Origin: Longimicrobiaceae bacterium
GTDB lineage: Bacteria; Gemmatimonadota; Gemmatimonadetes; Longimicrobiales; Longimicrobiaceae
NCBI GenBank assembly: GCA_051005515.1
Contig: JBPCJG010000106.1
Location: forward strand, 1 to 33,920
Length of the DNA: 33,920 nucleotides
Direction of reading: 5' to 3'
Shown: positions 2,822 to 32,294 of the stretch, in pieces
How positions within the stretch are numbered: position 1 is the first letter of the stretch
Layout: every line of letters begins with the position of its first letter
The notes under the pieces: model-generated
The model's database searches: none
The model's input: the letters and a program-made list of their open reading frames with translations, nothing else
What the model was told of the DNA's origin: nothing
Program-made: the position numbers and the translations under genes

Positions 2822-2861
2822 AACTACGCCCTCGGGCCACTCTCGTCAAGGTGGGTGCGGG

Positions 2862-5101: not shown

Positions 5102-5159
5102 GGCCGAGTCGAGAACGGATATTGCAACCCGCCTCGATCGCCGGATCGAATCACGCGAC

Positions 5160-5201: not shown

Positions 5202-5208
5202 AGGAATC

Positions 5209-5490: not shown

Positions 5491-5579
5491 CTTCCTGCCC
5501 GGGAACGTTCCATGCGTCACGGCTTCGCGACACCGGCGGCCGTGAGGCCGCCAGCGAACTCCGAACCCCACGCAGGACC

Positions 5580-6257: not shown

Positions 6258-6258
6258 G

Positions 6259-7071: not shown

Positions 7072-7077
7072 CCCGGC

Positions 7078-17656: not shown

Positions 17657-18138
17657 CCCCGCGCCGCACCGTCCGGACGCGCCCGCCCAGCCGCATCGAA
17701 ACCAGCGCCGGCGGAGTCGTTTTCCGCTGCCGCGGCGGGATCGTCCGCGTGCTGTTGGTGCGCGATCGGTACGGACATTGGGGTCTCCCGAAGGGACATG
17801 TAGAAGCGGGCGAAACCGCCTCCGAGGCGGCGCTCCGGGAGGTCCGCGAGGAAACCGGCCTTTCCGAGCTGGCCATGGGTCGCGAACTCGACACCATCGA
17901 CTGGTTCTTTCGCTTCGGCGGGCAGACGATCCACAAGTACTGCCACTTCTTTCTCGTGGAGGCCCTCCGCGGAGAGGCGGTACCCCAGCCGGAGGAAGGC
18001 GTCTCGGAGTGCGTCTGGCTGTCGATCCCGGAGGCGATCGAAGCCATCGCGTACGAAAACGCCCGGGAGGTCCTCCGCCTGGCGGCGGAGGACCTCCCGG
18101 GTGTGTCAGCTTCGGCCGGACCGGGCCCTGCTCAGTAG
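17653..18138 (+). CDS. NUDIX hydrolase
   Basis: ATG 17653 overlaps the asd stop (ATGA). Nudix box 'GHVEAGETASEAALREVREETGL'. Confidence 0.8.
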   Translation: MTPRRTVRTRPPSRIETSAGGVVFRCRGGIVRVLLVRDRYGHWGLPKGHVEAGETASEAALREVREETGLSELAMGRELDTIDWFFRFGGQTIHKYCHFFLVEALRGEAVPQPEEGVSECVWLSIPEAIEAIAYENAREVLRLAAEDLPGVSASAGPGPAQ

Positions 18139-18389
18139 TTCTCCGCTTCGGATCCTTCCCCGCCGAGCACCTTCTTTCCCAGCCAGATCCCCGCCGGAAT
18201 GGCGACCGCTGCGGCCGCCAGACCCTTGGCGGCAGTGCGCAGTGGCGAGCGCCTGCGGCGCGGCCTGCCGACCATCTCCGCCGCCCAGTCGATCCCCTTG
18301 ATCACCGCCGCCTTTTTCGGATTCGTGATCGCGAACATGGCCTTGGGCGCCTTCAGCCACGCAGCCGTCTTCAGTGCGCGTTTCAGCAT
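18132..18389 (-). CDS. Small basic hypothetical protein with one C-terminal hydrophobic segment
   Basis: 85-aa ORF with high third-position GC, Lys/Arg-rich, 'GLAAAAVAIPAGIWLG' segment. Its 3' end overlaps the NUDIX gene by 7 nt (convergent). No family recognised. Confidence 0.4.
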   Translation of the reverse strand: MLKRALKTAAWLKAPKAMFAITNPKKAAVIKGIDWAAEMVGRPRRRRSPLRTAAKGLAAAAVAIPAGIWLGKKVLGGEGSEAENY

Positions 18390-18584: not shown

Positions 18585-18857
18585 ATGACAGAGATCACGG
18601 CGGAACTCGAGGCGGTCGAGACATGGCGCGGGGAGTGCTTTTCACGCCTGGATCGCCTGGCGTTCGCGCTCGAAATGGAAGCGGCGGAGCTGGTGTCGGC
18701 GGAGCGTCTGGCCGACGCGGAGTCACTCCAGGCGACGCGGCTGGGCGTGCGCCTCGCGCAGCGGCTGGTTTCCGGCGTTCCCTCCCCCGAGGTGGACGGC
18801 CGGCTTGGTCGGTGGGAAGAGGCCTATCTGAGCCGTCTCGCTCCGGCCGCTTCGTGA
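18585..18857 (+). CDS. Hypothetical 90-aa helical protein, translationally coupled to the methyltransferase
   Basis: ATG 18585 (GGGAGAG upstream) in track ORF 18501..18857. Its stop overlaps the GTG start of the next gene (GTGA). Glu/Ala/Leu-rich. No family recognised. Confidence 0.45.
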   Translation: MTEITAELEAVETWRGECFSRLDRLAFALEMEAAELVSAERLADAESLQATRLGVRLAQRLVSGVPSPEVDGRLGRWEEAYLSRLAPAAS

Positions 18858-19567
18858 ACGCCCCCACCATCGCCCGGCGCATCTCGGAGCTGGGTCCGTG
18901 GTTCCACGACCTGGAAGTGCGGGGGGTCCGCACGGCCCCCGATCATCCGCTCGGCGACTTCCTGCGCGACCTCTGGCGGCAGGTCGCAACCGCGTTTCCC
19001 GCGGACATGACCGGGCTGACGGCGCTCGACATCGGCTGCAACGCGGGCTTCTATTCGCAGCAGCTCTCCCGCCGCGGCGCCACCGTCACGGCGATCGATC
19101 ACGATCCGCACTACCTGGCGCAGGCGCGTTTCGCGGCCAGCGCGGCGGGGGCGGAGATCGAGTTTCTGGAGCTCGACGTCTACGACGTCGGCTCGCTCGG
19201 CCGGCGCTTCGACTACGTGCTCTTCATGGGGGTGTTCTACCACCTTCGCCATCCGCTCCTCGCGCTCGACCGGGTGGCGGCGCTGCCGCGGCGCCGGCTC
19301 GTCTTCCAGAGCATGCTGCGCGGCTGCGGCGGGACGCTGCCGCTGGAATCCGACTACCCCTTCGAGGAGCGGGCGATCTTCGAGCACCCCCGCTTCCCCG
19401 CGATGTACTTCGTGGAAGGAGAGTACGCGAATGATCCCACCAACTGGTGGATCCCCAACCAGGCGGGGATGGAGGCGATGCTCCGCTCCGCCGGCTTGCG
19501 GATCGATGAACGCATCGGCGGAGAAGTCTACATCTGCTCCCCCGCAGACATGGAGGTGGCGGCATAG
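18854..19567 (+). CDS. Class I SAM-dependent methyltransferase, DUF1698/CmoB-like (resembles the TIGR04290 family from memory)
   Basis: GTG 18854 in track ORF 18494..19567 gives 237 aa. 'GPWFHDLEVRG' N-terminal motif, SAM motif I 'ALDIGCNAGFYS', 'YVLFMGVFYHLRHPL', and C-terminal 'NWWIPN...MLRSAGL'. Confidence 0.75.
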   Translation: MNAPTIARRISELGPWFHDLEVRGVRTAPDHPLGDFLRDLWRQVATAFPADMTGLTALDIGCNAGFYSQQLSRRGATVTAIDHDPHYLAQARFAASAAGAEIEFLELDVYDVGSLGRRFDYVLFMGVFYHLRHPLLALDRVAALPRRRLVFQSMLRGCGGTLPLESDYPFEERAIFEHPRFPAMYFVEGEYANDPTNWWIPNQAGMEAMLRSAGLRIDERIGGEVYICSPADMEVAA

Positions 19568-20430
19568 CGCTCCACCACCCGGCTCGCGAACCAGACGAAC
19601 TCTTCGAGCGCTACCGGTGGGCTGGTATGGTCGGCCCGGACCCCCAGCGAGGGCGGCGTGAAGCAGAGGGTCACGCACACCTCGAAGGGTTCGAGAGCCG
19701 CCATGATCGTGTCGAACCATTCCCATGCGCCGGGCAGGTAGCTTTCCGCCCAGCTCAGGCCGGTCCGCACCCGGCGCACGCCCAGCCGCTGCAGCCAGTC
19801 GGCGGCCAGGGTGAGCGACGCTTCGTCTCGCCACTGAAACCACTGGCAGATCCCGAATTCGGGGGAGAACTCCTCGACGGCACGCTTCGGAGTACCGTCC
19901 CAGCGCAGCAACCCGAAGTGGAAGTGCCGGAAGTAGGAGCTTCCCTCCGCCTGCTTGTGGCGGGTGGTGGCTTCGTGCGCGGGGGCGAGGTCGAGAAGGG
20001 AATACCAGAAGACCTCTTCATCGCCCAGGATCCGGAGACTTTCGCGCAGCCCCCACGCCGCGAACTCCTCGTTCGCGAAGGAGGAGACGCCGGTCTCGGT
20101 GATCCATACCGGCATCCCGAATTCGGCGCGGATCGCGGCCAGCTTATGCGGCCACTCCCGCAGCGGCCAGAGATTCCAGTCGAGCGGGAAGCCGTGAACG
20201 GCGAGCACGTCCACCGCCTCGAGCACTCCCATGACCCGCATGCGGCGCAGAAAGCTCGGGTCGATGGGAGAGATGCCGCCGAGCACGAGCGGCAGCTCGG
20301 TACCCGACTCACGCAGGGCGGCGGCGGTTTCGCGCACCAGCGCGGCGTACCGGTCCCAGCCCGGATCGAGGGTAAAGTCCCAGTGAGAAAGGTTGTTCGG
20401 TTCGTTCCAGAGCTTTACGGAAGTGATCAC
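19528..20430 (-). CDS. Clan GH-A-like glycoside hydrolase (TIM barrel) with its motifs in circularly permuted order
   Basis: 300-aa ORF with a GTG start. 'LWNEPN' (strand-4 acid/base motif) at residues 7-12 and 'WITETG' (strand-7 nucleophile motif) near residue 110. A C-terminal-type 'FGLLRWDGTPKRAVEEF' sits near residue 180. It is followed by N-terminal-type sequence 'FGICQW...LQRLGVRRVRTGLSWAE...FEVCVTLCFTPP...FASRVVERY'. Confidence 0.65.
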   Translation of the reverse strand: MITSVKLWNEPNNLSHWDFTLDPGWDRYAALVRETAAALRESGTELPLVLGGISPIDPSFLRRMRVMGVLEAVDVLAVHGFPLDWNLWPLREWPHKLAAIRAEFGMPVWITETGVSSFANEEFAAWGLRESLRILGDEEVFWYSLLDLAPAHEATTRHKQAEGSSYFRHFHFGLLRWDGTPKRAVEEFSPEFGICQWFQWRDEASLTLAADWLQRLGVRRVRTGLSWAESYLPGAWEWFDTIMAALEPFEVCVTLCFTPPSLGVRADHTSPPVALEEFVWFASRVVERYAATSMSAGEQM

Positions 20431-20447
20431 TTCGGCGGAGGTGCGGC

Positions 20448-21575
20448 TTGAGCGGACGGAGCGTCCTGGTGACCGGCGGAGCGGGGTTCGTGGGGAGCCA
20501 CCTGGTCGACGCCCTGCTCACGCGGGGAGACCGGGTGCGGATCCTCGACAACCTCGACCCGCAAGTTCACGGCCCCCAGCGGCGGGAGCCGGCCTGGCTC
20601 CCGGACGAGGCGGAGCTGCTGCGGGGCGACGTGCGCGACCCCGACGCAGTGGATCGCGCGGTGCGCGACGTGGACGTGATCTTTCATCTGGCGGCGGCGG
20701 TCGGCGTGGGGCAGTCGATGTACCGCATCGCCGAGTACACCGCGGTCAACACCCTGGGGACGGCGAATCTGCTCCAGGCCCTGGTGGATCGGGAGATCGA
20801 ACCCGAGCGTCTGGTCGTAGCCAGCTCCATGTCGATCTACGGCGAAGGCCGCTACGCGCGTCCCGACGGTAGAAATCCATCGGTCGCGCGACGCTCGCCC
20901 GAACAGCTACGGGCGCACGACTGGGAAGTGCGCGACCGCGATGGCACACCGTTGGAGCCGCTCCCCACCGACGAGGCGAAGCCGCTGGAGCCCGCTTCGA
21001 TCTACGCCCTCACCAAGGCAGACCAGGAGAAGATGGTGCTGCAGATCGGCGACGCGTACGGGATCCCGTCCGTGGCGCTGCGCTTCTTCAACATCTACGG
21101 GCCCCGGCAGTCGCTTTCCAACCCGTACACCGGCGTGGCGGCGATCTTCAGCTCCCGTCTGCTCAACGGCCAGCCGCCGCTGATCTTCGAGGATGGGGAA
21201 CAGCGGCGGGACTTCGTCTCCGTCCACGACGTGGTGAGCGCTCTGCTGCTGGCGGGTGAAGAGGGCGGTGCGGTGGGGGAGGCGCTGAACGTCGGGTCCG
21301 GGAGCGCGGTTTCCGTGCGTCAGGTAGCCGAAACGCTCGCGGAGGTGCTGGGCGCGGCTTTGCAGCCGGAGGTGACGGGCCGCTACCGGGTGGGCGACAT
21401 CCGCAACTGCTTTGCCGACATCACCCGGGCGCGCGAGCGGATCGGGTATGCACCCAGGGTCTCCTTCCCCGCCGGGATGGCGGAGCTGGTGGAGTGGCTA
21501 CAGGAGCAGGAACGGCCGCAGGATGGCCTCAGGGAACACGCCGCGGAGCTGGCCGCCCGCGGTCTCACCATCTAA
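20448..21575 (+). CDS. NAD-dependent epimerase/dehydratase (extended SDR) with an insertion before the catalytic YxxxK
   Basis: 375 aa. TTG start with GGAGG 6 nt upstream. 'VLVTGGAGFVGSHL' and catalytic 'YALTK'. About 40-aa insert 'GEGRYARPDGRNPSVARRSPEQLRAHDWEVRDRDGTPLEPLP'. Confidence 0.8.
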   Translation: MSGRSVLVTGGAGFVGSHLVDALLTRGDRVRILDNLDPQVHGPQRREPAWLPDEAELLRGDVRDPDAVDRAVRDVDVIFHLAAAVGVGQSMYRIAEYTAVNTLGTANLLQALVDREIEPERLVVASSMSIYGEGRYARPDGRNPSVARRSPEQLRAHDWEVRDRDGTPLEPLPTDEAKPLEPASIYALTKADQEKMVLQIGDAYGIPSVALRFFNIYGPRQSLSNPYTGVAAIFSSRLLNGQPPLIFEDGEQRRDFVSVHDVVSALLLAGEEGGAVGEALNVGSGSAVSVRQVAETLAEVLGAALQPEVTGRYRVGDIRNCFADITRARERIGYAPRVSFPAGMAELVEWLQEQERPQDGLREHAAELAARGLTI

Positions 21576-21597
21576 TCGTCTTAAACGGGGAGTGGAG

Positions 21598-22674
21598 ATG
21601 AGGGGGGGTTACACGCTGATCACGGGAGGCGCCGGCTTCATCGGCTGCAACCTCGCCGACGCCATCCTTGCGGACGGCGGAGCGGTGGTGGTCGCCGACA
21701 ACTTCTCGCGGCCGGGAGTGCGCAGCAACGCCGCCTGGCTGCGGAACCGGCACGGAGGCCGGGTGCGCATCGAGAACGCGGACGTGCGCGACGCCGCGCG
21801 AGTAGCCCAGCTCGTCGCCGGGGCGCGCGAGATCTTTCATCTGGCCGCGCAGGTCGCCGTGACCACTTCGTTCGAAGATCCCGTGCTCGACCTGCACACC
21901 AACCTGCTCGGCACCTTCAACCTGCTCGAAGCCGCGCGCGCCCTGCCGTCCCCACCGCCCCTGCTCTTCACCTCTACCAACAAGGTGTACGGCGAGCTTT
22001 CCGACCTCCCCGTCCAAAAGAATGGCGGGGCGTACGAGTACGCCGACGGCGGCGACGGAGTTTCCGAGTCGGCCCCGCTCGACTTCCACTCCCCCTACGG
22101 CTGCTCCAAGGGCGCCGCCGACCAGTACGTCCGCGACTACGCGCGCGTCTTCGGCCTGCGCACCCTGGTCTTCCGCATGAGCTGCATCTACGGAACGCGT
22201 CAGCTCGGGACCGAAGACCAGGGGTGGGTAGCGCACTTCGCCCGCTCGCTCCTCGTGGGGCGGCCGATCACCGTGTACGGAGACGGCTGTCAGGTGCGGG
22301 ACATTCTGTGGATCGGCGACCTGGTCGCCGCGCTGCGCACCGCCATGGCCAATGTCGAGCGGCTTTCCGGAAGCGTCTTCAACATCGGTGGCGGGAGCGG
22401 GAACGCGGTTTCGGTGCGGCGCGTGATCGACCGCTTGCAGGAGATCACCGGCCGTGAGGTGCCGGTGGAAGCGGACGCCTGGCGGCCGGGCGACCAGCGC
22501 ATCTACGTGTCCGACACCTCCCACGCCCGGGACGCGTTCGGCTGGCGCCCTCGGATGCCGTGGGAGAAGGGGCTGGAGCGGCTGGTGGAATGGTTGAACG
22601 AGACGGAGCTGCCGGCACTCCACTCCCCCGCGCCCGCGCGGCGGGAGTCGCGTCCGGTCCTGGCGGTGGGATGA
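21598..22674 (+). CDS. NAD-dependent epimerase, CDP-paratose/tyvelose 2-epimerase-like extended SDR
   Basis: ATG 21598 (GGGGAGTGGAG upstream) in track ORF 21412..22674. 'LITGGAGFIGCNL', 'SPYGCSKGAADQYVRDYARVFGL' and 'RMSCIYGTRQLGTEDQGWVAHF' resemble RfbE-type 2-epimerases. Confidence 0.75.
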   Translation: MRGGYTLITGGAGFIGCNLADAILADGGAVVVADNFSRPGVRSNAAWLRNRHGGRVRIENADVRDAARVAQLVAGAREIFHLAAQVAVTTSFEDPVLDLHTNLLGTFNLLEAARALPSPPPLLFTSTNKVYGELSDLPVQKNGGAYEYADGGDGVSESAPLDFHSPYGCSKGAADQYVRDYARVFGLRTLVFRMSCIYGTRQLGTEDQGWVAHFARSLLVGRPITVYGDGCQVRDILWIGDLVAALRTAMANVERLSGSVFNIGGGSGNAVSVRRVIDRLQEITGREVPVEADAWRPGDQRIYVSDTSHARDAFGWRPRMPWEKGLERLVEWLNETELPALHSPAPARRESRPVLAVG

Positions 22675-23654
22675 GCGCGAGGGGGGTCGCACAGCGGACG
22701 ATGCGGGCCGCGGTCCTCGCCTCCCCTGGCTGCCTGGAGCTGCGGGAGCGGCCGATCCCCGCGCCGACGTCCGGCGAGGTGCTCGTGCGGTTGGAGGGAT
22801 CGGGGGTGTGCGCGTCGAACCTGGCCGTGTGGGCGGGGCAGCCGTGGTTCGACTACCCGCTCCCGGCCGGCGCCCCGGGGCACGAGGGGTGGGGTGTCGT
22901 GGACGCCGTCGGATCCGCGGTGGCGGAAGTGGCGGAAGGGGACCGCGTGGCGCTCCTTTCGCAGAGCGCGTATGCCGAATACGACATGGTGTCGGCCGAC
23001 CAGATCGTGCCGCTGCCTCCCGGGCTCGACGGCGCCGCCTTTCCGGGAGAGCCGCTCGGCTGCGCGATGAACATCTTCCGCCGCAGCGGCGTCGCCGCGG
23101 GACAGACCATCGCCGTCGTCGGGATCGGCTTTCTAGGCGCGCTGCTCACGCAGCTCGCCAGTGGCGTCGGTGCGCGCGTGATCGCCGTCTCCCGGCGCGA
23201 CTTATCGCTTTCGGTAGGCACCGCGATGGGCGCTGCAGCGGCAGTACCGCTCCAGGATCCCTCGTCGACCGTGGACGAGGTGCGCGAGCTCACGGGCGGA
23301 GAGCTCTGCGACGTGGTCATCGAGGCGACCGGCAAGCAATCGCCGCTCGACCTGGCTGCGAAATTGACCCGCGTCCGCGGTCGGCTGGTCATCGCCGGCT
23401 ACCACCAGGACGGGCCGCGGCAGGTGGACATGCAGCTCTGGAACTGGCGGGGTCTGGACGTGATCAACGCGCACGAACGCGACCCGGCAGTCTACCGGCA
23501 GGGGATGCGCGAAGCCGTCGAAGCCATCGTATCCGGACGGCTCGACCCGGCGCTGCTCTATACGCACCGCTACCCCCTCGAACGGCTGGACGAGGCGCTC
23601 GACGCGACCCGCGACCGCCCCGACGGCTTTCTCAAGGCGCTGGTGACGGTGTGA
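22671..23654 (+). CDS. Zinc-type alcohol dehydrogenase / MDR-family oxidoreductase
   Basis: ATG 22671 overlaps the previous stop (ATGA). 'GSGVCASN', 'GHEGWGVV', and Rossmann 'VVGIGFLGALL'. Confidence 0.8.
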   Translation: MSARGVAQRTMRAAVLASPGCLELRERPIPAPTSGEVLVRLEGSGVCASNLAVWAGQPWFDYPLPAGAPGHEGWGVVDAVGSAVAEVAEGDRVALLSQSAYAEYDMVSADQIVPLPPGLDGAAFPGEPLGCAMNIFRRSGVAAGQTIAVVGIGFLGALLTQLASGVGARVIAVSRRDLSLSVGTAMGAAAAVPLQDPSSTVDEVRELTGGELCDVVIEATGKQSPLDLAAKLTRVRGRLVIAGYHQDGPRQVDMQLWNWRGLDVINAHERDPAVYRQGMREAVEAIVSGRLDPALLYTHRYPLERLDEALDATRDRPDGFLKALVTV

Positions 23655-24688
23655 ACGCCGGGGCGGCTGCGCCCGCGTCCGCGGCAGGAACCGCCACCCC
23701 GCCCACCCGTCCCCGCCTGGCGTTCCTCGGCGTCGGGTGGATCGGGCGCCACCGCCTGCAAGCGGTGGCGGAGAGCGGGGTCGCCGAGATCGTGGCGATC
23801 GCCGACCCGGACGCAGCCGCGGCCGCCGCGGCGAGCGACGTCGCCCCCGACGCCGCACCCTGCGAGAACCTCGAGGCGTTGCTCGCCACGGAGCCGGACG
23901 GCGTGGTGATCGCGACGCCGAACGCGCTGCACGCCGGGCAGGCGCTGCGGGCGCTCGCAGCGGGAGCCGCGGTCTTCTGCCAGAAGCCGCTCGGGCGCAG
24001 CGCCGCGGAGACGCGCGGCGTCGTGGACGCCGCGCGCGCCGCGGACCGCCTGCTCGAGGTGGACCTGTCGTACCGGCACACCGGGGCGGCGCGGGCGGTC
24101 CGCGAGTTGGTCGCGGACGGCGCGATCGGCCGTGTCTACGCCGCGCGGCTGGTCTTCCATAACGCCTACGGCCCCGACAAGGCGTGGTTCCGCCACCCGC
24201 GTCTGGCCGGCGGAGGGTGCGTCATGGACCTGGGGGTGCACCTGGTGGACCTGGCGCTCTGGACCCTCGGCTTCCCCCCAGTTGTCGGCGTCTCCAGCCG
24301 CCGCTTCGCCGGGGGCGAGCGGCTGGCACACGGCGACGGGCGCGCCGAGGACTTCGCCACCGCGCGGCTCGATCTGGACACGGGTGCCGTGGTAGAGGTC
24401 GCCTGCTCCTGGGATCTGCACGCGGGAAGGGACGCGACCATCGCCGCGGATTTCCACGGGTCGGAGGGCGGCGCATCCCTCCACAATCTGCGCGGCTCGT
24501 TCTACGACTTCGCCGCGGAGCGCTTCCGCGGCACCTCCGCCGAGCCGCTCGCCGAGCCGCCCGACGACTGGGGAGGACGCGCGATCGTCCGCTGGGTCGA
24601 GCGCGTCGCCGCGGGCGCGGCTTTCGATGCAGCGGCGACGGAGCTGGTGGCGGTCGCCGAGGTGCTGGACGCCATTCTGGGGAGATGA
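23651..24688 (+). CDS. Gfo/Idh/MocA-family NAD(P)-dependent oxidoreductase
   Basis: GTG 23651 overlaps the previous stop (GTGA). 'LAFLGVGWIGRHR' Rossmann motif and 'VFCQKPL' (EKP-type motif). 345 aa. Confidence 0.75.
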   Translation: MNAGAAAPASAAGTATPPTRPRLAFLGVGWIGRHRLQAVAESGVAEIVAIADPDAAAAAAASDVAPDAAPCENLEALLATEPDGVVIATPNALHAGQALRALAAGAAVFCQKPLGRSAAETRGVVDAARAADRLLEVDLSYRHTGAARAVRELVADGAIGRVYAARLVFHNAYGPDKAWFRHPRLAGGGCVMDLGVHLVDLALWTLGFPPVVGVSSRRFAGGERLAHGDGRAEDFATARLDLDTGAVVEVACSWDLHAGRDATIAADFHGSEGGASLHNLRGSFYDFAAERFRGTSAEPLAEPPDDWGGRAIVRWVERVAAGAAFDAAATELVAVAEVLDAILGR

Positions 24689-25800
24689 GGGTCTTCCTTA
24701 CGGCGGACACGGTAGGCGGCGTCTGGGACCACGTCGCGACGCTCGCCGGCGAGCTGCGCTCCGCCGGCGACGAGGTGCTGGTCGCCGTAGTGGGCGAGCG
24801 GCGCGACGACCGCTTGGCGGCGCTGGCGCCGGGGGTGGAGGTCACCTCCCGCTCCTACCGGCTGGAGTGGATGCAGGGGGCCGCGGCGGATGTCGCCGCC
24901 GCCGGGGAGTGGCTCGCCCACACCGCCCGGCTCTGGTGCGCCGACCTCGTGCACCTCAACCAGTACGCGTACGCGGTGCACGACTTCGGTGCACCCGTGC
25001 TGGTCGCGGGGCACAGCGACGTGCTTTCCTGGTGGCGCGAAACGCTGGGTCGGGCCGCTCCCGCGGAGTGGCGGGAGTACGGCGGCTGGGTGCGGGCGGG
25101 GCTCGCCGCCGCCGACTCTGTCGTCACGCCGACGTTGTATCAGTCGCGTCTGCTCCTGCGGGAGTACGGGCGCGCCGCCGACCAGGTGATCCACAACGGC
25201 ATCCTGCCCGTCGAGGGGGCCGGTCCTGCCGCCGACGGAAGCGACGGGGTGCTGGTGGTGTGCGCGTGCCGGGCCTGGGACCGCGCCAAGGGCGCGGAGG
25301 TGCTCGACCGCGCCGTCGGCCGCCTCGGCGGCGCCGGCGTGGAGGCGCACCTGCTTGGCGCCACCGTGGCGCCGTCCGGCGAGCGCTACGAGCCGCTGCA
25401 CCTGACGTCGCACGACCGCGTCGAGCGCGCCGAGGTGGACGCGTGGCTGTCGCGGGCGAGCGTGTACGTAGCTCCCTCGCTCTACGAGCCGTTCGGGCTG
25501 GCGCCGCTGGAGGCGGCGTTCGCCGGCTGCGCGCTGCTGCTCTCGGACATCGGCTCCTTTCGGGAGCTATGGGACGGCTGCGCGCGCTTCTTCCCCGCCG
25601 GCAGTGACGCGGCGCTGGCCGCCGCGCTCACCGAGCTGCACGAAGACCCGTCGTCGCGCGACCGGATGGCCGGCTCGGCCCGGCGCCGTGCCGAGCGCCG
25701 CTACACCGCCGACCGTATGGCCGCAGACTACCGTGTGCTGTACGCCGAGCTGGCGGTGAGCGGATCGCCCGCCGCCAGCGCCACCGACGTGCGCGCGTGA
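24685..25800 (+). CDS. GT4-family (GT-B, retaining-type) glycosyltransferase
   Basis: ATG 24685 overlaps the previous stop (ATGA). 'VYVAPSLYEPFGLAPLEAAFAGCALL' E-x7-E motif. No TM segment. Confidence 0.8.
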   Translation: MRVFLTADTVGGVWDHVATLAGELRSAGDEVLVAVVGERRDDRLAALAPGVEVTSRSYRLEWMQGAAADVAAAGEWLAHTARLWCADLVHLNQYAYAVHDFGAPVLVAGHSDVLSWWRETLGRAAPAEWREYGGWVRAGLAAADSVVTPTLYQSRLLLREYGRAADQVIHNGILPVEGAGPAADGSDGVLVVCACRAWDRAKGAEVLDRAVGRLGGAGVEAHLLGATVAPSGERYEPLHLTSHDRVERAEVDAWLSRASVYVAPSLYEPFGLAPLEAAFAGCALLLSDIGSFRELWDGCARFFPAGSDAALAAALTELHEDPSSRDRMAGSARRRAERRYTADRMAADYRVLYAELAVSGSPAASATDVRA

Positions 25801-26939
25801 ACTTCGCCTGCTTCGTCCACAGCGCCGTTTCTGACTGGAACCACGGCAACGCGCACTTCCTGCGCGGGCTGCTCAGCGCGCTCGCCGCGCGCGGCCACAC
25901 CGTCACCGCCTGGGAGCCGCGCCTCCCCTGGTCCGCCCGCAACCTGGTCAAGGAGCACGGCTTCGCGCCGGTGGTGGAGTTCGCCCGCGCCTACCCCGAG
26001 ATCGGCGTGCGCAGCTACGACCCCGCCGACGAGGAATTGCTGGAGCGGCTGGAGGACGCCACCCGGACTGCAAACGTGGTGCTGGTCCACGAGTGGAACT
26101 CCCCCCGGCTGGTCGGCGCCCTCGGTCATCTCCGCCGGCGCGGCGCCGGCTGGACGCTGCTCTTCCACGACACCCACCACCGTCCCTGGAGCGATCCGGC
26201 GGCGATCGCGCGATTCAACCTGTCCGCCTACGACGGGGTGCTCGCCTTCGGCGAGGTGCTGCGGCGGATCTACCTCGAGCGCTTCGGAACACACCGGGCC
26301 TGGACGCTGCACGAGGCAGCGGACACGCGCCGCTTCCGGCCGCTGGAGCGCCCCGAGAGCGACGACGTGGTGTGGATCGGCAATTGGGGGGATGCGGAGC
26401 GATCGGTCGAGCTGGAGCGCTTCTGGCTCGCCGCCGCGCGCGCCCACCCGGAGCTGCGCTGGGCCGCGTACGGCGTGCGCTACCCCGGGGAAGCGGTCGA
26501 GGCGCTGGCAAAGGCGGGAGTAGACTACCGCGGCTGGGCCGCCTCACTGGAGGTCCCGGAGATCTTTGCCCGGAGTCGAGTCACCCTGCACATTCCCCGG
26601 CAGGCGTACGTGGAAGGGCTCCCGGGGATCCCGACGATCCGGGTCTTCGAGGCACTCGCCTGCGGCATCCCACTGGTGTCGGCGCCCTGGTCCGACGCCG
26701 AGGATCTGTTCCGCCCGGGCGACTACGCGGTCGGGGAAACACCGGCCGAGCTGCGCAGCGAGATCCTCCGTTTGTTGGGTGACAGGGAAGCAGCCGCAGA
26801 GCAGGCGGCGCGGGGGCTCGAATCCGTGCTCGCCCGACACACCTGCGACCACCGCGCCGGCGAGCTGCTGGACATCGTCGCCGAGCTGGGGACTTGCGAC
26901 AGCAGCGCACCCCCCGAGCGCGTCGCGGCATGGAGCTGA
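25797..26939 (+). CDS. CgeB-like glycosyltransferase-family protein, paralogue 1
   Basis: 380 aa. GTG start overlaps the previous stop (GTGA). N-terminal 'SAVSDWNHGNAHFLRGLLSALAARGHTVT'. C-terminal 'TIRVFEALACGIPLVSAPWSDAEDLF'. Confidence 0.65.
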   Translation: MNFACFVHSAVSDWNHGNAHFLRGLLSALAARGHTVTAWEPRLPWSARNLVKEHGFAPVVEFARAYPEIGVRSYDPADEELLERLEDATRTANVVLVHEWNSPRLVGALGHLRRRGAGWTLLFHDTHHRPWSDPAAIARFNLSAYDGVLAFGEVLRRIYLERFGTHRAWTLHEAADTRRFRPLERPESDDVVWIGNWGDAERSVELERFWLAAARAHPELRWAAYGVRYPGEAVEALAKAGVDYRGWAASLEVPEIFARSRVTLHIPRQAYVEGLPGIPTIRVFEALACGIPLVSAPWSDAEDLFRPGDYAVGETPAELRSEILRLLGDREAAAEQAARGLESVLARHTCDHRAGELLDIVAELGTCDSSAPPERVAAWS

Positions 26940-28009
26940 CGTTCTTTGGATCCTCGCTGGTCTCCGCGTACTGGAACGGCGCGGCTACCTACTACCGCGG
27001 GCTGCTGCGCGCGCTCCACCAACGCGGGCACCGGATCACCTTCTGCGAGCCCGACGCGTACGGCCGGCAGCAGCATCGCGATCTCGCCGAAGACCCGCCC
27101 TACGCGCGCGTCCGCGTCTATTCCGACGCAGGCGAACGCGATGAGTTGGTGCGCGAGGCATTTGCGGACAGCGACTGGGTCTTCAAGTGCAGCGGCGTCG
27201 GGATCTGGGACGGGGAACTGGAGGCCGCCGTCGCCGCGGGGAGCGGCGGCGAGGTGCGGACGGCGTTTTTGGACGTCGACGCCCCGGCCACGCTGCAGCG
27301 GCTCGCGGACGATCCCGCCGATCCGTTCCACGCCTGCGTCCCCCGTTTCAACCACGTTTTCACCTACGGCGGCGGGCCCCCCATCGTCGAGCGCTACCTG
27401 CGGGCGGGGGCGCGGGCGTGCACGCCCGTCTACAACGCGGTCGATCCCGAGGCGCACGCCCCGCCGCCCGATGTGGAGCGGCGCTGGGAGCTGCTCTTCA
27501 TGGGCAACCGGCTCCCGGACCGCGAGCGGCGCGTGGAGGAGTTCTTTGTCAGGGCGGCGGAGCTGGTCCCCGACGCCCGCTTCGCCCTCGGCGGCGAAGG
27601 TTGGTCGGACCGCCCCCTGCCGGCCAACGTCGAGCTCCTCGGCCACGTTCCTACCGCGCGCCACAACGCCGTCAACGCCGCCGCGCGCCTGGTTCTCAAC
27701 GTCCACCGCGACTCGATGGTGGAGAACGGCTGGTCGCCCGCGACCCGCATGTTCGAGGCGGCGGGGGCCGCAGCGTGCCAGATCACCGATGCGTGGCGCG
27801 GGATCGAGGAGTTCTTTCAACCGGATGCCGAGATCCTCGTCGCCGACGGCGCGGAGGCGGTAGCGGATTACGTCGTCCGGGTCGACGATGCGCGCGCCCG
27901 GGAGATCGGTGCGGCTGCGCGACGGCGGGCGCTGCGCGACCACGGCTACGCGCAGCGCGCCGCGCTCCTCGATCCGCTGTTGCGAACGCCCGCGGAGGCA
28001 GCCGCGTGA
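26930..28009 (+). CDS. CgeB-like glycosyltransferase-family protein, paralogue 2
   Basis: ATG 26930 (10-nt overlap with paralogue 1). 359 aa. 'SLVSAYWNGAATYYRGLLRALHQRGHRIT' and 'ATRMFEAAGAAACQITDAWRGIEEFF'. Confidence 0.65.
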   Translation: MELTFFGSSLVSAYWNGAATYYRGLLRALHQRGHRITFCEPDAYGRQQHRDLAEDPPYARVRVYSDAGERDELVREAFADSDWVFKCSGVGIWDGELEAAVAAGSGGEVRTAFLDVDAPATLQRLADDPADPFHACVPRFNHVFTYGGGPPIVERYLRAGARACTPVYNAVDPEAHAPPPDVERRWELLFMGNRLPDRERRVEEFFVRAAELVPDARFALGGEGWSDRPLPANVELLGHVPTARHNAVNAAARLVLNVHRDSMVENGWSPATRMFEAAGAAACQITDAWRGIEEFFQPDAEILVADGAEAVADYVVRVDDARAREIGAAARRRALRDHGYAQRAALLDPLLRTPAEAAA

Positions 28010-29097
28010 AGCTGGTAGTGTTCGGACTCGCCGTCTCCTCGAGCTGGGGGAACGGCCACGCCACCACCTATCGGGCGCTGCTCGGAGCCTTCGCGGCGCG
28101 CGGCCACGAGATCGTCTTCTACGAGTGGAACGCCCCCTGGTACGGCGGCGGACACCGGGATCTCCCCGACCCGCCGTTCTGCCGGCTCGAGCTGTACGAT
28201 CGCTGGGAGCGGGTGCGCGAGCGCGCCACCGCAGAGACCCGGGATGCGGATGCGACTCTGGTGGGCTCCTACGTCCACCGCGGCAGGGAAGTCATCGACG
28301 CGCTCGCGGGCGCCTGCGTCGAGCCGCTCTTCTTCTACGACATCGACACGCCGGTCACCGTCGGGCTCCTGCGCCGCGGGGAAGCGGAGTACCTGCGCCG
28401 CGACCAGGTCCCCGTCTTCACCCGCTACCTGTCGTTCACCGGCGGTCCTTTCCTGCAGGCCGTGGTCGAGGGCGAGCTGGGAGCCCGCGAGGCGGTGCCG
28501 CTCTACTGCTCGGTGGATGAACGGGTCTACGGCGAGACTTCTCCGCAGGCGGAGTTCGCGGCCGACCTCGCGTACATGGGCACCTACGCCGAGGACCGTC
28601 AGCCGACGCTCGACCGCCTGCTGCTGGAGCCGGCGCGCAGGGCTGGTGACCGCACCTTCCTGGTTGCTGGCCCGCAGTACCCGCAAGCGATCCGCTGGCC
28701 CACCAACGTGCGCCGGCTGCCCCACGTCCCCCCGAGCCGGCACCCCGCGTTCTACTCCAGCGCCGCGTGGCAACTGAACGTGACGCGGGCCGAGATGCGG
28801 GCGGCCGGCTGGTCACCGTCGGTGCGCTTCTTCGAGGCGGCCGCCTGCGGCGCGGCGCTGCTCTCCGACCGCTGGCCGGGGATCGAGCATTTCCTGCGCC
28901 CGGGCGAGGAGATCCTGCTCCCCGACAGCACGGAGGAGGTGCTCGGTATCCTGGCGGAGACGCACCCCGACGAGCGCCGGGCGATCGGCGCAGCCGCCCG
29001 CTCCCGCATCCTCGCGGAGCACACCGCCGAGCGGCGTGCAGGCGAGCTGGAAACGCTGCTGGCTGTGTCCGCTTCCGCGCCGCCGATGCCGGTGTAA
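28006..29097 (+). CDS. CgeB-like glycosyltransferase-family protein, paralogue 3
   Basis: GTG 28006 overlaps the previous stop (GTGA). 363 aa. 'AVSSSWGNGHATTYRALLGAFAARGHEIV' and 'SVRFFEAAACGAALLSDRWPGIEHFL'. Confidence 0.65.
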   Translation: MKLVVFGLAVSSSWGNGHATTYRALLGAFAARGHEIVFYEWNAPWYGGGHRDLPDPPFCRLELYDRWERVRERATAETRDADATLVGSYVHRGREVIDALAGACVEPLFFYDIDTPVTVGLLRRGEAEYLRRDQVPVFTRYLSFTGGPFLQAVVEGELGAREAVPLYCSVDERVYGETSPQAEFAADLAYMGTYAEDRQPTLDRLLLEPARRAGDRTFLVAGPQYPQAIRWPTNVRRLPHVPPSRHPAFYSSAAWQLNVTRAEMRAAGWSPSVRFFEAAACGAALLSDRWPGIEHFLRPGEEILLPDSTEEVLGILAETHPDERRAIGAAARSRILAEHTAERRAGELETLLAVSASAPPMPV

Positions 29098-29125: not shown

Positions 29126-29527
29126 ATGGCGCAGCGGCGGTATGCCTCCTATGCTTCAAGCGTGTCCCTTCTCTTGTTTCTGCTCGCGCTGCTGGGGCTG
29201 GCGGCGCTGCTCGTCCGGCTCGGGCGCAGCCTACTCCGCCTGCTCCTGGCGAGCGCCCGCAGCACGACGGCCGACGGCATGGCCGACCTCAGCGCGCGCC
29301 GCGGTGATTTGACGCTGCTGGCGGAGCGGGACGAGCAGGCGCGGCTCCTCGCCAGCGCGCGCCGCCTCGAGTGGTCTCGCGCGGCGCTCTGGGCAGCGCT
29401 GCTGATCCTGCCGCCGCTGTTCGGCGCCGCGCTCTACGTCTACCCTGCGGCGGTCCTCCTCTGGCTGCTCCCGCGAAACCGGCGCACGAACGGAACACCC
29501 CGGCAACCTCCCCCTCACCTCCCATGA
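29126..29527 (+). CDS. Hypothetical small membrane protein (2-3 TM segments)
   Basis: ATG 29126 in track ORF 29036..29527 gives 133 aa. 'VSLLLFLLALLGLAALLV' and 'AALWAALLILPPLFGAALYVYPAAVLLWLL'. Its stop overlaps the transporter ATG (ATGA). Confidence 0.5.
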   Translation: MAQRRYASYASSVSLLLFLLALLGLAALLVRLGRSLLRLLLASARSTTADGMADLSARRGDLTLLAERDEQARLLASARRLEWSRAALWAALLILPPLFGAALYVYPAAVLLWLLPRNRRTNGTPRQPPPHLP

Positions 29528-31788
29528 GCGAACCGTCTCCTCCTTCGGCCACCCGGCTCGATCCACCCGGTGGGCAAGGAGCCACCGTGCTGCCGAAGGG
29601 GCCCAAGCTCTTCGGCACCTTCGCCGGCGTTTTCACCCCGACGCTGCTGACGATTCTCGGGGTGATCATGTACCTCCGGCTCGGCTGGGTCGTGGGCAAC
29701 GCCGGCCTGCTCGGGGGGCTGCTCATCATCGCGCTGACCAACGGGATCACGCTTTGCACGGCCCTGTCGCTGTCGAGCATCGCCACCAACACGCGGCTGG
29801 GGGCGGGCGGACCGTACGCGATCATCTCCAAGTCGCTCGGCTTCGAGATCGGGGGCAGCGTGGGCGTGCCGCTCTACCTGTCGCAGGCGCTCGCCGTGGC
29901 GATGTACGTGTTCGGCTTTCGCGAAGGATGGAAGTGGGTCTTTCCGGAGCACCCGGCGATCCTCGTGGACCTCGCGATCTTCGGCGTGGTCTTCGTGATC
30001 GCCTATCTTTCGGCGAGCCTCGCCTTCAAGATCCAGTACGTGGTGATGGCGGTGATCGGGATCTCCCTCGTGTCGATCTTCGCAGCTCCGGAATTCATCC
30101 AGGGCACCGGCGGTGGGATCCAGCTCTGGGGGAGCTACCCCGGCGCCCCCGAGAACGGCTTCGCGGGCACCAATTTCTGGCTCGTTTTCGCCGTCTTCTT
30201 TCCGGCAGCCACCGGCATCATGGCCGGCGCGAACATGTCGGGCGAGCTGAAGAGCCCCAGGCGGAGCATCCCCGCCGGAACGCTTTCGGCCATCGCCGTT
30301 TCGCTGGTGATCTACGTCGCCCTCGCCGTGTGGACGGCGCGCGTCGCGACACCCGAGGAGCTGGTTTCGAATTACACCGTGATGATCGACAAGGCGGTCT
30401 GGGGGCCGGCCGTGCTCGGCGGACTGCTCGGGGCCACCTTCTCGTCGGCGCTGACCTCGCTGGTCGGCGCGCCGCGCATCATCCAGGCGCTCGGCAAGGA
30501 TCGGCTGGTACCGGCCGGGCGATGGCTGGAGAAGACCAGCGGCGGAGAGCCGCGCCGCGCCATGCTCGTCACCGGCGTGATCGTGCTGGCGGCACTCCTG
30601 CTGCGCGACCTGAACGTGATCGCCCCGATGATCACGATGTTCTTTCTGATCACGTACGCCGTGATCAATGTCGTGATGCTGGCGGAGGCGAGCCTCGGGT
30701 TGATGAGCTTCCGGCCCACCTTGCGACTGCCGCGCATCGTGCCCCTCCTGGGTGCGCTCGGATGCGTCTTCGCCATGTTCATCGTGAACCCTACCGTAGG
30801 GCTCCTGGCGGTGGGCGTGGTGGGCGGAATCTACTTCTGGATCACCTGGCGCGGAGTCGCTCCCCGCACCGGCACCGTGCGCAGCGGCATCTTCGCCGCC
30901 TTCGCGGAATGGGCGGCGGGCAAGGTGATCGCCCTCGAGATGAGCGCGAGCCGGGCGTGGAAGCCGAGCCTGCTCGTACCCGTGCTCGACCCGGCCGCGC
31001 TGCGCGGCGAGCTGCGACTGCTCATCGACGTGTGCAGGCCGGAAGGGTCGGTGAAGCTGCTGGGCGTGGCGACCACGGAAACGATTGCCGACCTCACGCC
31101 ACGGATCGAAGGGCTGGCCCGGACTCTACGCAAGAACGACGTTCTGACCACCAGCGCGGTGATCGACTCGGCCGGCTTCGCCGAGGGGATCGTCACGGGA
31201 GTGCAGGCGTTGAGGAGCGCGTTCTTCGCGCCGAACGTGCTCTTTCTGAACCTTCCGCACCACCCCGAACGCCACGACGAACTGCGCGAGATCGTCAAGG
31301 AAACCTGCCGCCTCGAGGTGGGCGTGATGCTGCTGGCGATGCACGAGCAGGCGGGCCTGGGAATGAGCAAGACCGTCAACCTCTGGGTCCGCCCCCGGCC
31401 CCGTCGCCTTTCCCTCGAGGAGTACCTCGGCCGCTCCGACCTGAACCTCGGCATCCTCACCGCGCTCCGCCTGGCGCGGGCCTGGAGGGCCGATCTCAAC
31501 CTGCTCACGGTCGTGCCCGACGAGGGAGAGATCGCGGATGCGTACGTGCACCTCGCGGAGCTACGTGATCTGGTCCGCATCCCGGAGGCCGCCCGTTCGC
31601 AGGTGATCGCGGGAAGCTTCAGGGAGTGCGTGCCGCGCGCCCCGCAGTCCGACATCGACGTGATGGGGCTGCGGCGCGAGGACGACGGTCGTGCGCCGGA
31701 CCTGCAATTCGTCGCGGAGATGGTGAGGATCACGCGGAGCGCCTGCCTGTTCTGCGGCGCGTCCGGCCGCGAAAACGCCCTGGCGTAG
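29524..31788 (+). CDS. Cation-chloride cotransporter (SLC12/CCC) homologue, APC superfamily, with a cytoplasmic C-terminal domain
   Basis: ATG 29524 in track ORF 29371..31788 gives 754 aa. 'FGTFAGVFTPTLLTILGVIMYLRLGWVVGNAGL' is the hallmark SLC12 TM1-TM2 sequence. About 12 TM segments are followed by a soluble domain of about 270 aa. Confidence 0.8.
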   Translation: MSEPSPPSATRLDPPGGQGATVLPKGPKLFGTFAGVFTPTLLTILGVIMYLRLGWVVGNAGLLGGLLIIALTNGITLCTALSLSSIATNTRLGAGGPYAIISKSLGFEIGGSVGVPLYLSQALAVAMYVFGFREGWKWVFPEHPAILVDLAIFGVVFVIAYLSASLAFKIQYVVMAVIGISLVSIFAAPEFIQGTGGGIQLWGSYPGAPENGFAGTNFWLVFAVFFPAATGIMAGANMSGELKSPRRSIPAGTLSAIAVSLVIYVALAVWTARVATPEELVSNYTVMIDKAVWGPAVLGGLLGATFSSALTSLVGAPRIIQALGKDRLVPAGRWLEKTSGGEPRRAMLVTGVIVLAALLLRDLNVIAPMITMFFLITYAVINVVMLAEASLGLMSFRPTLRLPRIVPLLGALGCVFAMFIVNPTVGLLAVGVVGGIYFWITWRGVAPRTGTVRSGIFAAFAEWAAGKVIALEMSASRAWKPSLLVPVLDPAALRGELRLLIDVCRPEGSVKLLGVATTETIADLTPRIEGLARTLRKNDVLTTSAVIDSAGFAEGIVTGVQALRSAFFAPNVLFLNLPHHPERHDELREIVKETCRLEVGVMLLAMHEQAGLGMSKTVNLWVRPRPRRLSLEEYLGRSDLNLGILTALRLARAWRADLNLLTVVPDEGEIADAYVHLAELRDLVRIPEAARSQVIAGSFRECVPRAPQSDIDVMGLRREDDGRAPDLQFVAEMVRITRSACLFCGASGRENALA

Positions 31789-31790
31789 CG

Positions 31791-32294
31791 TCAGCGTTCT
31801 ACCCGCAGCGTCCCCCGCAGCAGGGTATTCGGTCCAAAGGTCGGTCGCCCCAGCGGACCGGCGTCCACGCCGAAGCGGCCGACGAGCTGATACTCGACCT
31901 CCTGGTTGGTCACGGCCCGGCCGAGCACCGTGGCGATCCGGGGCACGTCGGCGAAGCCGATGCCGATGTCGAGTGGGATCACGGTGCTTTGTCCTGCGGC
32001 GAGCGGCAGACCGAGCGGCAGATCGACGTCCGCCGCCTGGACGCCGTCGAGGGCGAGCTGCCCCTCGACCGTCGAAAGGGTGAGGCCGAACGCGTTCGGG
32101 TTCGCGACGTCAGCCCAGAGGCGGACCGCGGCGCCGCCGAGCGGTCGCGAGGGCGACGGCCCGAGCAGCCGCAGCTCCGCCTGGCGGCCGGACGCGACGT
32201 CAAAGGTGGGGGGTTGGATGATCTGGCCGAGCGTGGCGCAGGAGGCGAGCACGAGGGCGAGCGCTAACAGGCGAAGCTTGCGGTGGAGTTGCAT
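31791..32294 (-). CDS. LEA type 2 (LEA14/WHy-like) lipoprotein
   Basis: ATG 32294 in track ORF 31791..32666 gives 167 aa. Lipobox 'LVLASC'. All-beta LEA_2-type pattern 'ADVANPNAFGLTLSTVEGQLALDGVQAADVDL...STVIPLDIGIGF'. Its stop lies 2 nt from the transporter stop (convergent). Confidence 0.65.
   Translation of the reverse strand: MQLHRKLRLLALALVLASCATLGQIIQPPTFDVASGRQAELRLLGPSPSRPLGGAAVRLWADVANPNAFGLTLSTVEGQLALDGVQAADVDLPLGLPLAAGQSTVIPLDIGIGFADVPRIATVLGRAVTNQEVEYQLVGRFGVDAGPLGRPTFGPNTLLRGTLRVER

Follow-up and report, generated by a model that had tools for sequence, protein, structure and literature searches.

A candidate cassette for soluble decorated glycosides, shared by a Longimicrobiaceae bacterium and many other phyla

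Introduction

What does a bacterium assemble with four glycosyltransferases, two sugar epimerases, two oxidoreductases, a methyltransferase and a hydrolase-like barrel enzyme, when these are encoded side by side and no exporter accompanies them? The question is raised by a locus of eleven open reading frames (ORFs) at positions 18585-29097 of a contig from a Longimicrobiaceae bacterium (Gemmatimonadota; JBPCJG010000106.1). The window, which is the whole stretch of DNA that was analysed, measures 33.9 kb. The explanation that we favour, with even chances of being correct, assumes a soluble cassette for a short oligosaccharide or glycoside with decorations, built most probably on an acceptor derived from myo-inositol; the locus would contribute the genes for sugar tailoring, glycosyl transfer, methylation and trimming. 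The same genes recur in the same order in dozens of genomes of different phyla, so the arrangement is not due to chance. Furthermore, genes for inositol-3-phosphate synthase (MIPS) and a histidine phosphatase are physically attached to the cassette in most other phyla, which points to an inositol-derived acceptor.

An earlier note, made from the sequence alone, had read the locus as a pathway for an intracellular, possibly methylated, glycan or glycoside. Its gene content, the lack of an exporter and the lack of a matching known pathway stand, but it missed the widespread cassette, the link to MIPS and the phosphatase, and a circular permutation in the hydrolase-like enzyme.

Organisation of the locus

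The genes are listed below with the evidence for each assignment (GT, glycosyltransferase; GH, glycoside hydrolase; AF2, AlphaFold2).

18585-18857, plus strand: orf90, a 90-aa helical protein, translationally coupled to MT (translation; GTGA overlap)
18854-19567, plus strand: MT, a TIGR04290-family SAM-dependent methyltransferase, CmoB/DUF1698-related (NCBIfam, Pfam)
19528-20430, minus strand: GH-like, a circularly permuted GH-A-type TIM barrel of 300 aa (BLASTP, AF2 model)
20448-21575, plus strand: SDR1, an extended SDR (Pfam Epimerase, PDB matches)
21592-22674, plus strand: SDR2, an extended SDR (Pfam Epimerase, PDB matches)
22671-23654, plus strand: Zn-ADH/MDR oxidoreductase, ADH (Pfam ADH_N, ADH_zinc_N)
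23651-24688, plus strand: Gfo/Idh/MocA oxidoreductase, GFO (Pfam GFO_IDH_MocA, PDB matches)
24685-25800, plus strand: GT4-family GT-B glycosyltransferase (Pfam Glyco_trans_1_4, Glycos_transf_1, Glyco_transf_4)
25797-26939, plus strand: Cge1, CgeB-like GT-B glycosyltransferase 1 (PF13524, 1.6e-33)
26930-28009, plus strand: Cge2, CgeB-like GT-B glycosyltransferase 2 (PF13524, 1.5e-36)
28006-29097, plus strand: Cge3, CgeB-like GT-B glycosyltransferase 3 (PF13524, 1.5e-41; AF2 model)
29162-29527, plus strand: small membrane ORF of 121-128 aa which adjoins Cge3 downstream; its membership of the cluster is uncertain

Since the window has about 70% G+C, ORFs were chosen by third-position GC bias, together with their translations. 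The resulting model, with the translations and Pfam, reproduced all coordinates, families and overlaps that had been noted before for the eleven ORFs. The eight plus-strand genes from SDR1 to Cge3 (20448-29097) form a translationally coupled operon: 4-nt ATGA/GTGA overlaps lie at 22671, 23651, 24685, 25797 and 28006, and Cge1 and Cge2 share 10 nt (26930-26939).

Distribution and gene order of the cassette

Related loci were compared by tblastn of the window proteins against 83 fetched loci and by an all-against-all ORF family census, in which percentages refer to the 48 loci of at least 18 kb among the 83. Homologues of the GH-like protein are abundant. More than 7,500 close ones are found in metagenomes; among species genomes the carriers number at least 595, belong to more than 10 phyla and are nearly all diderms. 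The cassette occurs in Gemmatimonadota, Bacteroidota, Beta-, Alpha-, Gamma- and Deltaproteobacteria, Verrucomicrobiota, Acidobacteriota, Armatimonadota and Bdellovibrionota, often with its order kept. A test of neighbourhood conservation across genomes had been called for by the earlier note, and the gene set indeed recurs colinearly across phyla, following the scheme SDR1-SDR2-(ADH-GFO or B12-radical-SAM)-GT4-three CgeB-like-MT-GH. Flavisolibacter (Bacteroidota; locus L080) shows it in full as SDR1-SDR2-ADH-GFO-GT4-Cge1-Cge2-Cge3-MT-GH, and further colinear loci are L031, L054, L052 (Ramlibacter), L070 (Variovorax) and L055. Carriers include Sinorhizobium meliloti 1021 (pSymB), Azospirillum, Bradyrhizobium and the cultured Longimicrobium terrae, whose orf90 and eight-gene operon are 59-71% identical to those of the window.

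Among the 48 larger loci, the MT is present in 40/48 (83%), any CgeB-like gene in 75%, SDR1 in 60%, MIPS in 56%, the histidine phosphatase in 38% and a nucleotidyltransferase (NTase) in 35%. Positional orthologues of the GT4 gene were found in 27 loci. Identities of the CgeB-like paralogues are 27-36% among themselves and about 43-59% between each of them and its positional orthologues from other phyla (for Cge1, 27% and 45-58%, respectively); these enzymes are therefore ancient and non-redundant.

Two solutions exist for the site between SDR2 and GT4. The ADH and GFO pair occupies it in 18 loci and a gene for a B12-binding radical-SAM protein (TIGR04295, 721 bits) in 14, and both never occur together. 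The B12-radical-SAM enzyme is thus a non-orthologous replacement of the pair. Azospirillum lipoferum 4B (AZOLI_RS28650-28700) carries the second version as a compact 11-gene unit bounded by unrelated genes and without a transporter. There, two SDRs, the TIGR04295 radical-SAM gene, GT4 and three GTs diverge from MIPS, the histidine phosphatase, the TIGR04290 MT and a gene labelled 'beta-xylosidase'.

On pSymB of S. meliloti 1021 (at about 242-258 kb), the ADH-GFO variant comes with MIPS, the phosphatase, a 582-aa protein, an MT homologue and a pyruvyl-transferase pair. The latter consists of an FrhB-like protein and a polysaccharide pyruvyl transferase and follows the GH-like gene. We considered whether the MT had been swapped here for the pyruvyl transferase. 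This idea was dropped when tblastn located an MT of the TIGR04290 type where the GT operon has its far end, and the decoration in S. meliloti may be both methyl and pyruvyl. The pair and this MT are found at L085, 13876-16351, and L086, 2497-3171.

A minimal version in Gammaproteobacteria and Desulfuromonadales reads MIPS-GH-phosphatase-MT-GT9-like-MT2. From these loci it follows that the constant core is GH and MT with MIPS and the phosphatase, and that the glycosyltransferase set varies. RefSeq labels in these neighbourhoods are generic (glycosyltransferase, SDR, beta-xylosidase, inositol-3-phosphate synthase, histidine phosphatase).

Partner genes and the probable link to inositol

MIPS is encoded in 35+5 of the 83 loci (1.3e-158 to TIGR03450), the histidine phosphatase, whose family matches TIGR03848, in 23 and an RmlA-like NTase in 22. 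The remark that a nucleotidyltransferase is lacking is therefore right for this window only. Further partners in the census are a fourth or fifth CgeB-like GT and, more rarely, GT9-like, PIG-L, GNAT, UDP-glucose dehydrogenase and phosphopentomutase-like genes. A protein of about 584 aa (family F10, or FAM10) accompanies the cassette in 16 of the 83 loci, e.g. L026, L030, L045, L047, L049 and S. meliloti L085 (9330-11078). It has no match in Pfam, NCBIfam or the PDB. By eye, a phosphoribosyltransferase-like segment and an HGDxH kinase-like motif are visible in it.

Four Bradyrhizobium/Hyphomicrobiaceae loci (L036, L059, L066, L075) have a phosphopentomutase-like gene of the DeoB type between GH and SDR1. 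This gene and the NTase together hint at a pentose-derived nucleotide sugar as a possible donor in those loci. The MIPS genes of five Bradyrhizobium species and of two other alphaproteobacterial metagenome-assembled genomes (L036, L059, L066, L067, L069, L075, L062) are preceded, at a distance of 59-129 nt, by a motif of the EcfG/RpoE2 type, GGAAC-N16-17-CGTT, for which about 0.008 chance matches per locus are estimated. Azospirillum, Brevundimonas and Sinorhizobium lack the motif. In L075 an additional EcfG-type motif faces the divergent SDR operon. The occurrence in photosynthetic Bradyrhizobium also suggested bradyrhizose, a bicyclic sugar with a fused inositol-like ring. As a general explanation this was rejected because the cassette is far more widespread.

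Loci for sugar catabolism often contain hydrolase, Gfo/Idh/MocA and Zn-ADH genes, and with the epimerases these could be taken for a catabolic locus for an imported glycoside. We consider this very improbable, and it is already disfavoured by the gene content: the prevailing genes are those for four GT-B glycosyltransferases and a methyltransferase, genes for transporters, kinases or regulators do not accompany the cluster, and elsewhere it is joined to the gene for MIPS, a biosynthetic enzyme.

A circularly permuted GH-A barrel

The GH-like protein was described at first as a GH-A-like hydrolase. The barrel and both catalytic glutamates are in keeping with that description, and the part that had been overlooked is that the protein is a circular permutant. 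It starts ...KLWNEPNN and holds WITETG at residues 109-114. The chain thus begins at strand beta4 (WNEPN), continues to the nucleophile in WITETG and ends with beta1-beta3, its last 110 residues resembling beta/alpha units one to three of a GH-A barrel. No Pfam GH model scores above its cut-off (GH53 reaches 13-17 bits, vs 24). PslG, a GH39-like hydrolase from the Pseudomonas Psl operon, is matched in swapped order, with query residues 4-57 on PslG 133-184 and 192-228 on PslG 21-57.

An exhaustive search over 1.84 billion representatives retrieved canonical-order relatives of about 310-330 aa. At the level of sequence, the permutation is proven by one of these, P0166: in BLASTP, query residues 4-185 align with 111-310 (4e-27) and 192-289 with 8-105 (6e-22). 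The AF2 model (pLDDT 82.5, pTM 0.84) contains eight beta/alpha units, with N9-E10-P11 after strand 2-7 and E112 within strand 108-113. Of the 300 positions, 82, including N9-E10-P11 and E112, are at least 97% conserved across 84 sequences that represent more than 10 phyla. As modelled, the protein is a GH-A-type (beta/alpha)8 barrel with the acid/base glutamate after beta4 (NEP) and the nucleophile glutamate after beta7; it departs from the type in the canonical beta1-beta8 order and in membership of a curated GH family.

Foldseek returned only weak TIM-barrel, GH5, GH10 and GH53 matches for the model, as expected for a permutant. Re-permuting the sequence by hand brought no real gain against the PDB and Pfam (PslG 0.047 vs 0.041, GH53 0.0034 vs 0.05). 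Homologues are annotated 'beta-xylosidase'. In the sister family of canonical order, the barrel is also found in fusion with an extended SDR epimerase/dehydratase domain (P0145, 678 aa), which links the GH-like barrel functionally to SDR sugar chemistry. The Rhizobium plasmid matches H46-H60 belong to this SDR-fused sister family and carry the RefSeq label 'NAD-dependent epimerase/dehydratase'.

With PslG and other GH-A enzymes the GH-like protein shares the NEP acid/base, the TE(T)G nucleophile and the (beta/alpha)8 architecture. Its likeness to PslG in sequence is marginal (E 0.04), the order of its barrel elements is permuted and, unlike PslG, it has neither a signal peptide nor an anchor.

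Probable sugar-modifying and methylating enzymes

The MT scores 323 bits against TIGR04290 (8.7e-97; cut-off 300) and also matches PF08003/CmoB in Pfam. Its closest PDB entry is EvdMO1 (1e-10), an oligosaccharide sugar O-methyltransferase of everninomicin biosynthesis, and the protein is probably a carbohydrate O-methyltransferase. SDR1 and SDR2 match Pfam Epimerase at 7e-53 and 8e-47. For SDR1, the PDB matches 6wjb, 6wj9, MoeE5, 6dnt and GalE fall between 1e-45 and 1e-41 in two stretches, and the protein resembles UDP-hexose, UDP-GlcNAc and UDP-GlcA 4-epimerases with an insertion of about 40 residues. SDR2 aligns over its full length with 9rl0 (8.5e-82) and 1orr (2.6e-79). As a close homologue of CDP-tyvelose 2-epimerase, it is probably a nucleotide-sugar C2-epimerase. 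The best NCBIfam matches of the oxidoreductases are IolM scyllo-inosose 3-dehydrogenase for the Zn-ADH (96.8 bits) and IolG inositol 2-dehydrogenase for GFO (90 bits).

MIPS, dehydrogenases, a radical-SAM alternative, glycosyltransferases and an O-methyltransferase also make up the toolkit of cyclitol natural products. In 2-deoxystreptamine (aminoglycoside) pathways, 2-deoxy-scyllo-inosamine is oxidised either by the Zn-ADH-type NeoA or by the radical-SAM dehydrogenase BtrN. Could the product then be a glycosylated cyclitol of specialised metabolism, a signal or an antibiotic-like pseudo-oligosaccharide, instead of a physiological protectant? The origin of EvdMO1 and the PIG-L deacetylase and GNAT genes of some variants would agree with this. 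We nevertheless regard it as improbable, as neither an aminotransferase nor a resistance or efflux gene is present, the breadth, sequence conservation and fixed order across more than 10 phyla are atypical of such pathways, and the promoter motif in Bradyrhizobium is of a general-stress type.

Glycosyltransferases and their structural relatives

A PDB search found no solved relative of the CgeB-like family by sequence. The AF2 model of Cge3 (pLDDT 93.3) adopts a GT-B fold, and its top Foldseek matches, at TM-scores of about 0.7-0.76, are MshA, BshA, 7qsg, sucrose-phosphate synthase and a tetrahydrobiopterin glucosyltransferase. The fourth-best of the matches, 7qsg (14% identity), is the methylmannose-polysaccharide mannosyltransferase (ManT) of M. 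hassiacum. All of these are retaining GT4 enzymes with soluble cytoplasmic acceptors, and MshA uses inositol phosphate. The predicted fold is supportive of a soluble acceptor, though not decisive. To place the CgeB-like proteins structurally beside MshA, BshA and ManT is, as far as we can see, the first such placement.

The three paralogues share the C-terminal PF13524 domain with Bacillus subtilis CgeB, a glycosyltransferase of spore-crust maturation. In contrast to that system, the cassette lacks cgeA/cgeCDE and any sporulation context, and its carriers are non-sporulating diderms. The label 'CgeB' or 'spore maturation protein CgeB' on homologues is the name of a domain and not of a function.

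Where is the product assembled?

None of the eleven products contains a 19-residue window with the hydrophobicity of a transmembrane helix, as the earlier inspection by eye for transmembrane stretches had indicated. The sole hydrophobicity value above 1.6 belongs to the Rossmann GxGxxG segment of ADH. No Pfam family of priming transferases (WbaP/WecA type) was found in a scan of ORFs 5331-33920; the remaining part, 1-5330, was judged from precomputed Pfam matches in L087 alone. Neither a Wzx/Wzy, ABC-polysaccharide or OPX/PCP exporter nor a membrane synthase is encoded in the window, where the only transporters near the operon are MlaEFD and a cation-chloride cotransporter. The same holds beyond the window. 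A polyprenyl-phosphate transferase is not recurrent among the 83 related loci, and no membrane-protein family recurs in more than three of them, those that do recur being lineage-specific neighbours. The absence of an exporter therefore holds cassette-wide, and the original statement that exporter and priming enzyme are lacking extends from the window to the related loci. Taken together, this shows that the product is assembled in the cytoplasm. It may also be retained there and have an osmoprotective or storage role.

Epimerases, several glycosyltransferases and a PslG-like hydrolase resemble an exopolysaccharide (EPS) operon, and in a window of just 33.9 kb the priming and export genes of a conventional EPS, capsule or O-antigen pathway might simply lie elsewhere in the genome. 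This seems quite improbable to us. Wzx/Wzy-, ABC- and synthase-dependent polysaccharide loci are recognised by a priming transferase and an exporter, and here both are lacking; no Wzx, Wzy, ABC, OPX, PCP or polyprenyl-phosphate transferase family is recurrent in the 83 loci. PslG-type EPS hydrolases act outside the cytoplasm, unlike what the missing signal peptide suggests for the GH-like protein. Furthermore, the Azospirillum cassette ends at unrelated genes on both sides.

A glycan that is built on an envelope acceptor at the inner side of the membrane is the main rival, and it is unlikely but to be taken seriously. The acceptor might be a lipopolysaccharide (LPS) or lipooligosaccharide (LOS) core, a glycolipid such as an inositol lipid, or a protein. 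Such a glycan needs no dedicated exporter because housekeeping machinery (MsbA/Lpt or similar) carries it to the surface. PF13524 glycosyltransferases are reported in the literature from LOS outer-core loci of Acinetobacter, GT9 heptosyltransferase-like genes occur in the minimal and some full variants, and nearly all carriers are diderms. The structural neighbours of Cge3 include PimB' (an enzyme of phosphatidylinositol mannosides), PglA and HepE, and the pyruvyl-transferase pair of S. meliloti is typical of surface glycans. On the other hand, no lipid A/core, acyltransferase, CDP-alcohol phosphatidyltransferase or flippase gene is recurrent, the compact Azospirillum unit consists of soluble enzymes, MIPS and phosphatase only, the top structural matches of Cge3 use soluble acceptors, and within the window the cluster is not part of any recognisable LPS locus.

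Comparison with known systems

The TIGR04290 and TIGR04295 models of NCBIfam, which are 'hypothetical equivalogs' without an assigned function, are the only earlier recognition of the cassette that we could trace. The window agrees with them in an MT above the TIGR04290 cut-off and in the conserved neighbourhood. It differs as an ADH+GFO variant without radical-SAM, MIPS, phosphatase and NTase genes. The searched full-text literature contains no description of this gene set, including searches on TIGR04290/TIGR04295, on CgeB with inositol synthase and on pSymB, and within this literature the pathway is indeed uncharacterised, as first supposed. A paper on Bacteroides inositol lipids describes a different MIPS neighbourhood, and one on Ensifer aridi deals with inositol catabolism and a different cluster.

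Two groups of soluble pathways offer parallels. The first is mycothiol and bacillithiol synthesis (Ino1, MshA/BshA, phosphatase, PIG-L, GNAT), which also employs a soluble retaining GT-B enzyme and a small cytoplasmic acceptor; related loci link MIPS, the phosphatase and, in some cases, PIG-L and GNAT. The resemblance within the window is limited to the fold of Cge3, since by score its GT4 is not MshA. Unlike these systems, the cassette has no cysteine ligase but four to five GTs, two epimerases and a methyltransferase, and its carriers, unlike those of mycothiol, are mostly non-actinobacterial.

The second group comprises the mycobacterial methylmannose polysaccharides (MMP; ManT, MeT1, MeT3, MmpH) and methylglucose lipopolysaccharides (MGLP; GpgS, GpgP, Rv3032, Rv3030), where soluble GT-B enzymes, a SAM-dependent methyltransferase and a glycoside hydrolase likewise operate without an exporter. 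The likeness is at the level of architecture only. GpgP belongs to the histidine-phosphatase family, which occurs in related loci. In contrast to MMP and MGLP, the cassette contains a permuted GH-A barrel, epimerases, an oxidoreductase pair and the MIPS link, and its four distinct GTs suggest a defined hetero-oligosaccharide and not a homopolymer. The analogy to cytoplasmic systems of glycosyltransferase, methyltransferase and hydrolase drawn in the earlier note thus receives some support, from the fold matches of Cge3 and from EvdMO1 as nearest relative of the MT.

A proposed pathway and its weak points

How might the enzymes of the favoured pathway, a soluble one on a myo-inositol-derived acceptor, act together? 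Apart from the family and fold assignments, all steps that follow are inferred. SDR1 (4-epimerase-like) and SDR2 (2-epimerase-like) would convert housekeeping nucleotide-sugars into the donor sugars. Zn-ADH and GFO would oxidise or reduce a hydroxyl group of a cyclitol or sugar, for example in an epimerisation or a keto step, and elsewhere a single B12-binding radical-SAM enzyme would perform this reaction; the two alternative enzymes for 2-deoxy-scyllo-inosamine oxidation provide a precedent. GT4 and Cge1-3 may each add one residue, and the TIGR04290 MT would O-methylate the product. The permuted GH-A enzyme, both glutamates of which are intact, could trim, transglycosylate or recycle it. In the majority of other phyla the in-cluster MIPS and histidine phosphatase would supply the acceptor; here their genes, if used, would sit elsewhere in the genome.

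Several points weigh against this proposal. MIPS and the histidine phosphatase are absent from the window and from every Gemmatimonadota locus examined, and no MIPS gene lies in the roughly 10 kb to the left of the window; for this organism, an acceptor derived from inositol is thus an extrapolation based on other phyla. The Iol matches of ADH and GFO are far below the family cut-offs. GT4 reaches 26 bits against the MshA model TIGR03449 (cut-off 462) and 33 bits against the BshA model (cut-off 274). The Foldseek E-values of Cge3 barely differ among GT4 structures, PglA and HepE of LPS/EPS pathways being listed as well, and the GT9 genes of some variants hint at envelope acceptors. A missing exporter is not proof of retention because LOS and LPS-core glycans need none either. 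Lastly, the product is deduced from genes alone.

Surroundings of the operon

The genes flanking the locus encode MlaEFD, aspartate kinase, ASD, a NUDIX protein, a cation-chloride cotransporter, LEA_2, GNAT and SDR proteins. Stress-type small proteins lie upstream (YMGG glycine-zipper, DUF2383 ferritin-like and DUF883-like; 5331-7605), and the cotransporter (29587-31788) and LEA_2 (31791-32294, minus strand) follow directly downstream of the operon. These surroundings suggest a desiccation or osmotic-stress neighbourhood. Together with the EcfG-type motif, such neighbours would fit a stress-related product, and we treat both as weak leads that give hints.

The 5′ end of the window is spanned by PaaA/B/C/D-like oxygenase genes (295-2772, minus strand). 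Contigs from the Logan run SRR22405850 overlap the window, and L087 covers about 10 kb to its left, where a Cu/Zn superoxide dismutase, a GH77 amylomaltase and a large truncated gene are found. In the syntenic genome L001, a TREH_N/GH15 enzyme adjoins the operon.

Within the locus, the GH-like gene and SDR1 are divergent with 17 nt between their start codons (20431-20447), so that the divergent promoters must lie within coding sequence. MT and the GH-like gene are convergent and overlap by 40 nt (19528-19567). The corresponding spacing and overlap in L001 are 17 nt and 25 nt. A scan for sigma-70 promoters and terminators gave nothing within the operon, and an Rfam scan of the window detected no RNA element. 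At 18062-18101 on the minus strand, a T-run follows a perfect GC-rich hairpin of 18 bp; the structure lies inside the NUDIX gene of the plus strand, at its 3′ end, and looks like a terminator for a conserved 85-aa minus-strand ORF (18132-18389).

Homologues of orf90, which has no Pfam match, were found by tblastn only in Gemmatimonadota loci (52-63% identity). In L. terrae the homologue sits before SDR1 and not before MT. The small membrane ORF downstream of Cge3 has a hydrophobic N-terminus and is called as a gene in L088. Profile searches gave no family match, and among the related loci tblastn found a homologue (53% identical, in the same position) in L001 only.

Significance

A cassette conserved in no fewer than 595 species genomes points to a metabolite that is common among bacteria and has so far not been described. 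We tentatively propose, as a rather doubtful extension of the favoured explanation, a new class of cytoplasmic, inositol-anchored oligosaccharides of about four residues. They would be methylated, in rhizobia also pyruvylated, placed under general-stress control, and would serve as desiccation or osmotic protectants or as chaperone-like molecules. The permuted GH-A enzyme would be dedicated to their processing or transglycosylation, and the redox/epimerisation step would be interchangeable.

Two by-products are of value in themselves: a natural circular permutation of the GH-A barrel, and the replacement of a dehydrogenase pair by a B12-radical-SAM enzyme. Since genetically tractable bacteria such as S. 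meliloti, Azospirillum, Bradyrhizobium and L. terrae carry the cassette, the question of its product is directly testable. If the product is indeed a stress protectant of soil and rhizosphere bacteria, it would bear on their survival of desiccation and on the performance of inoculants.

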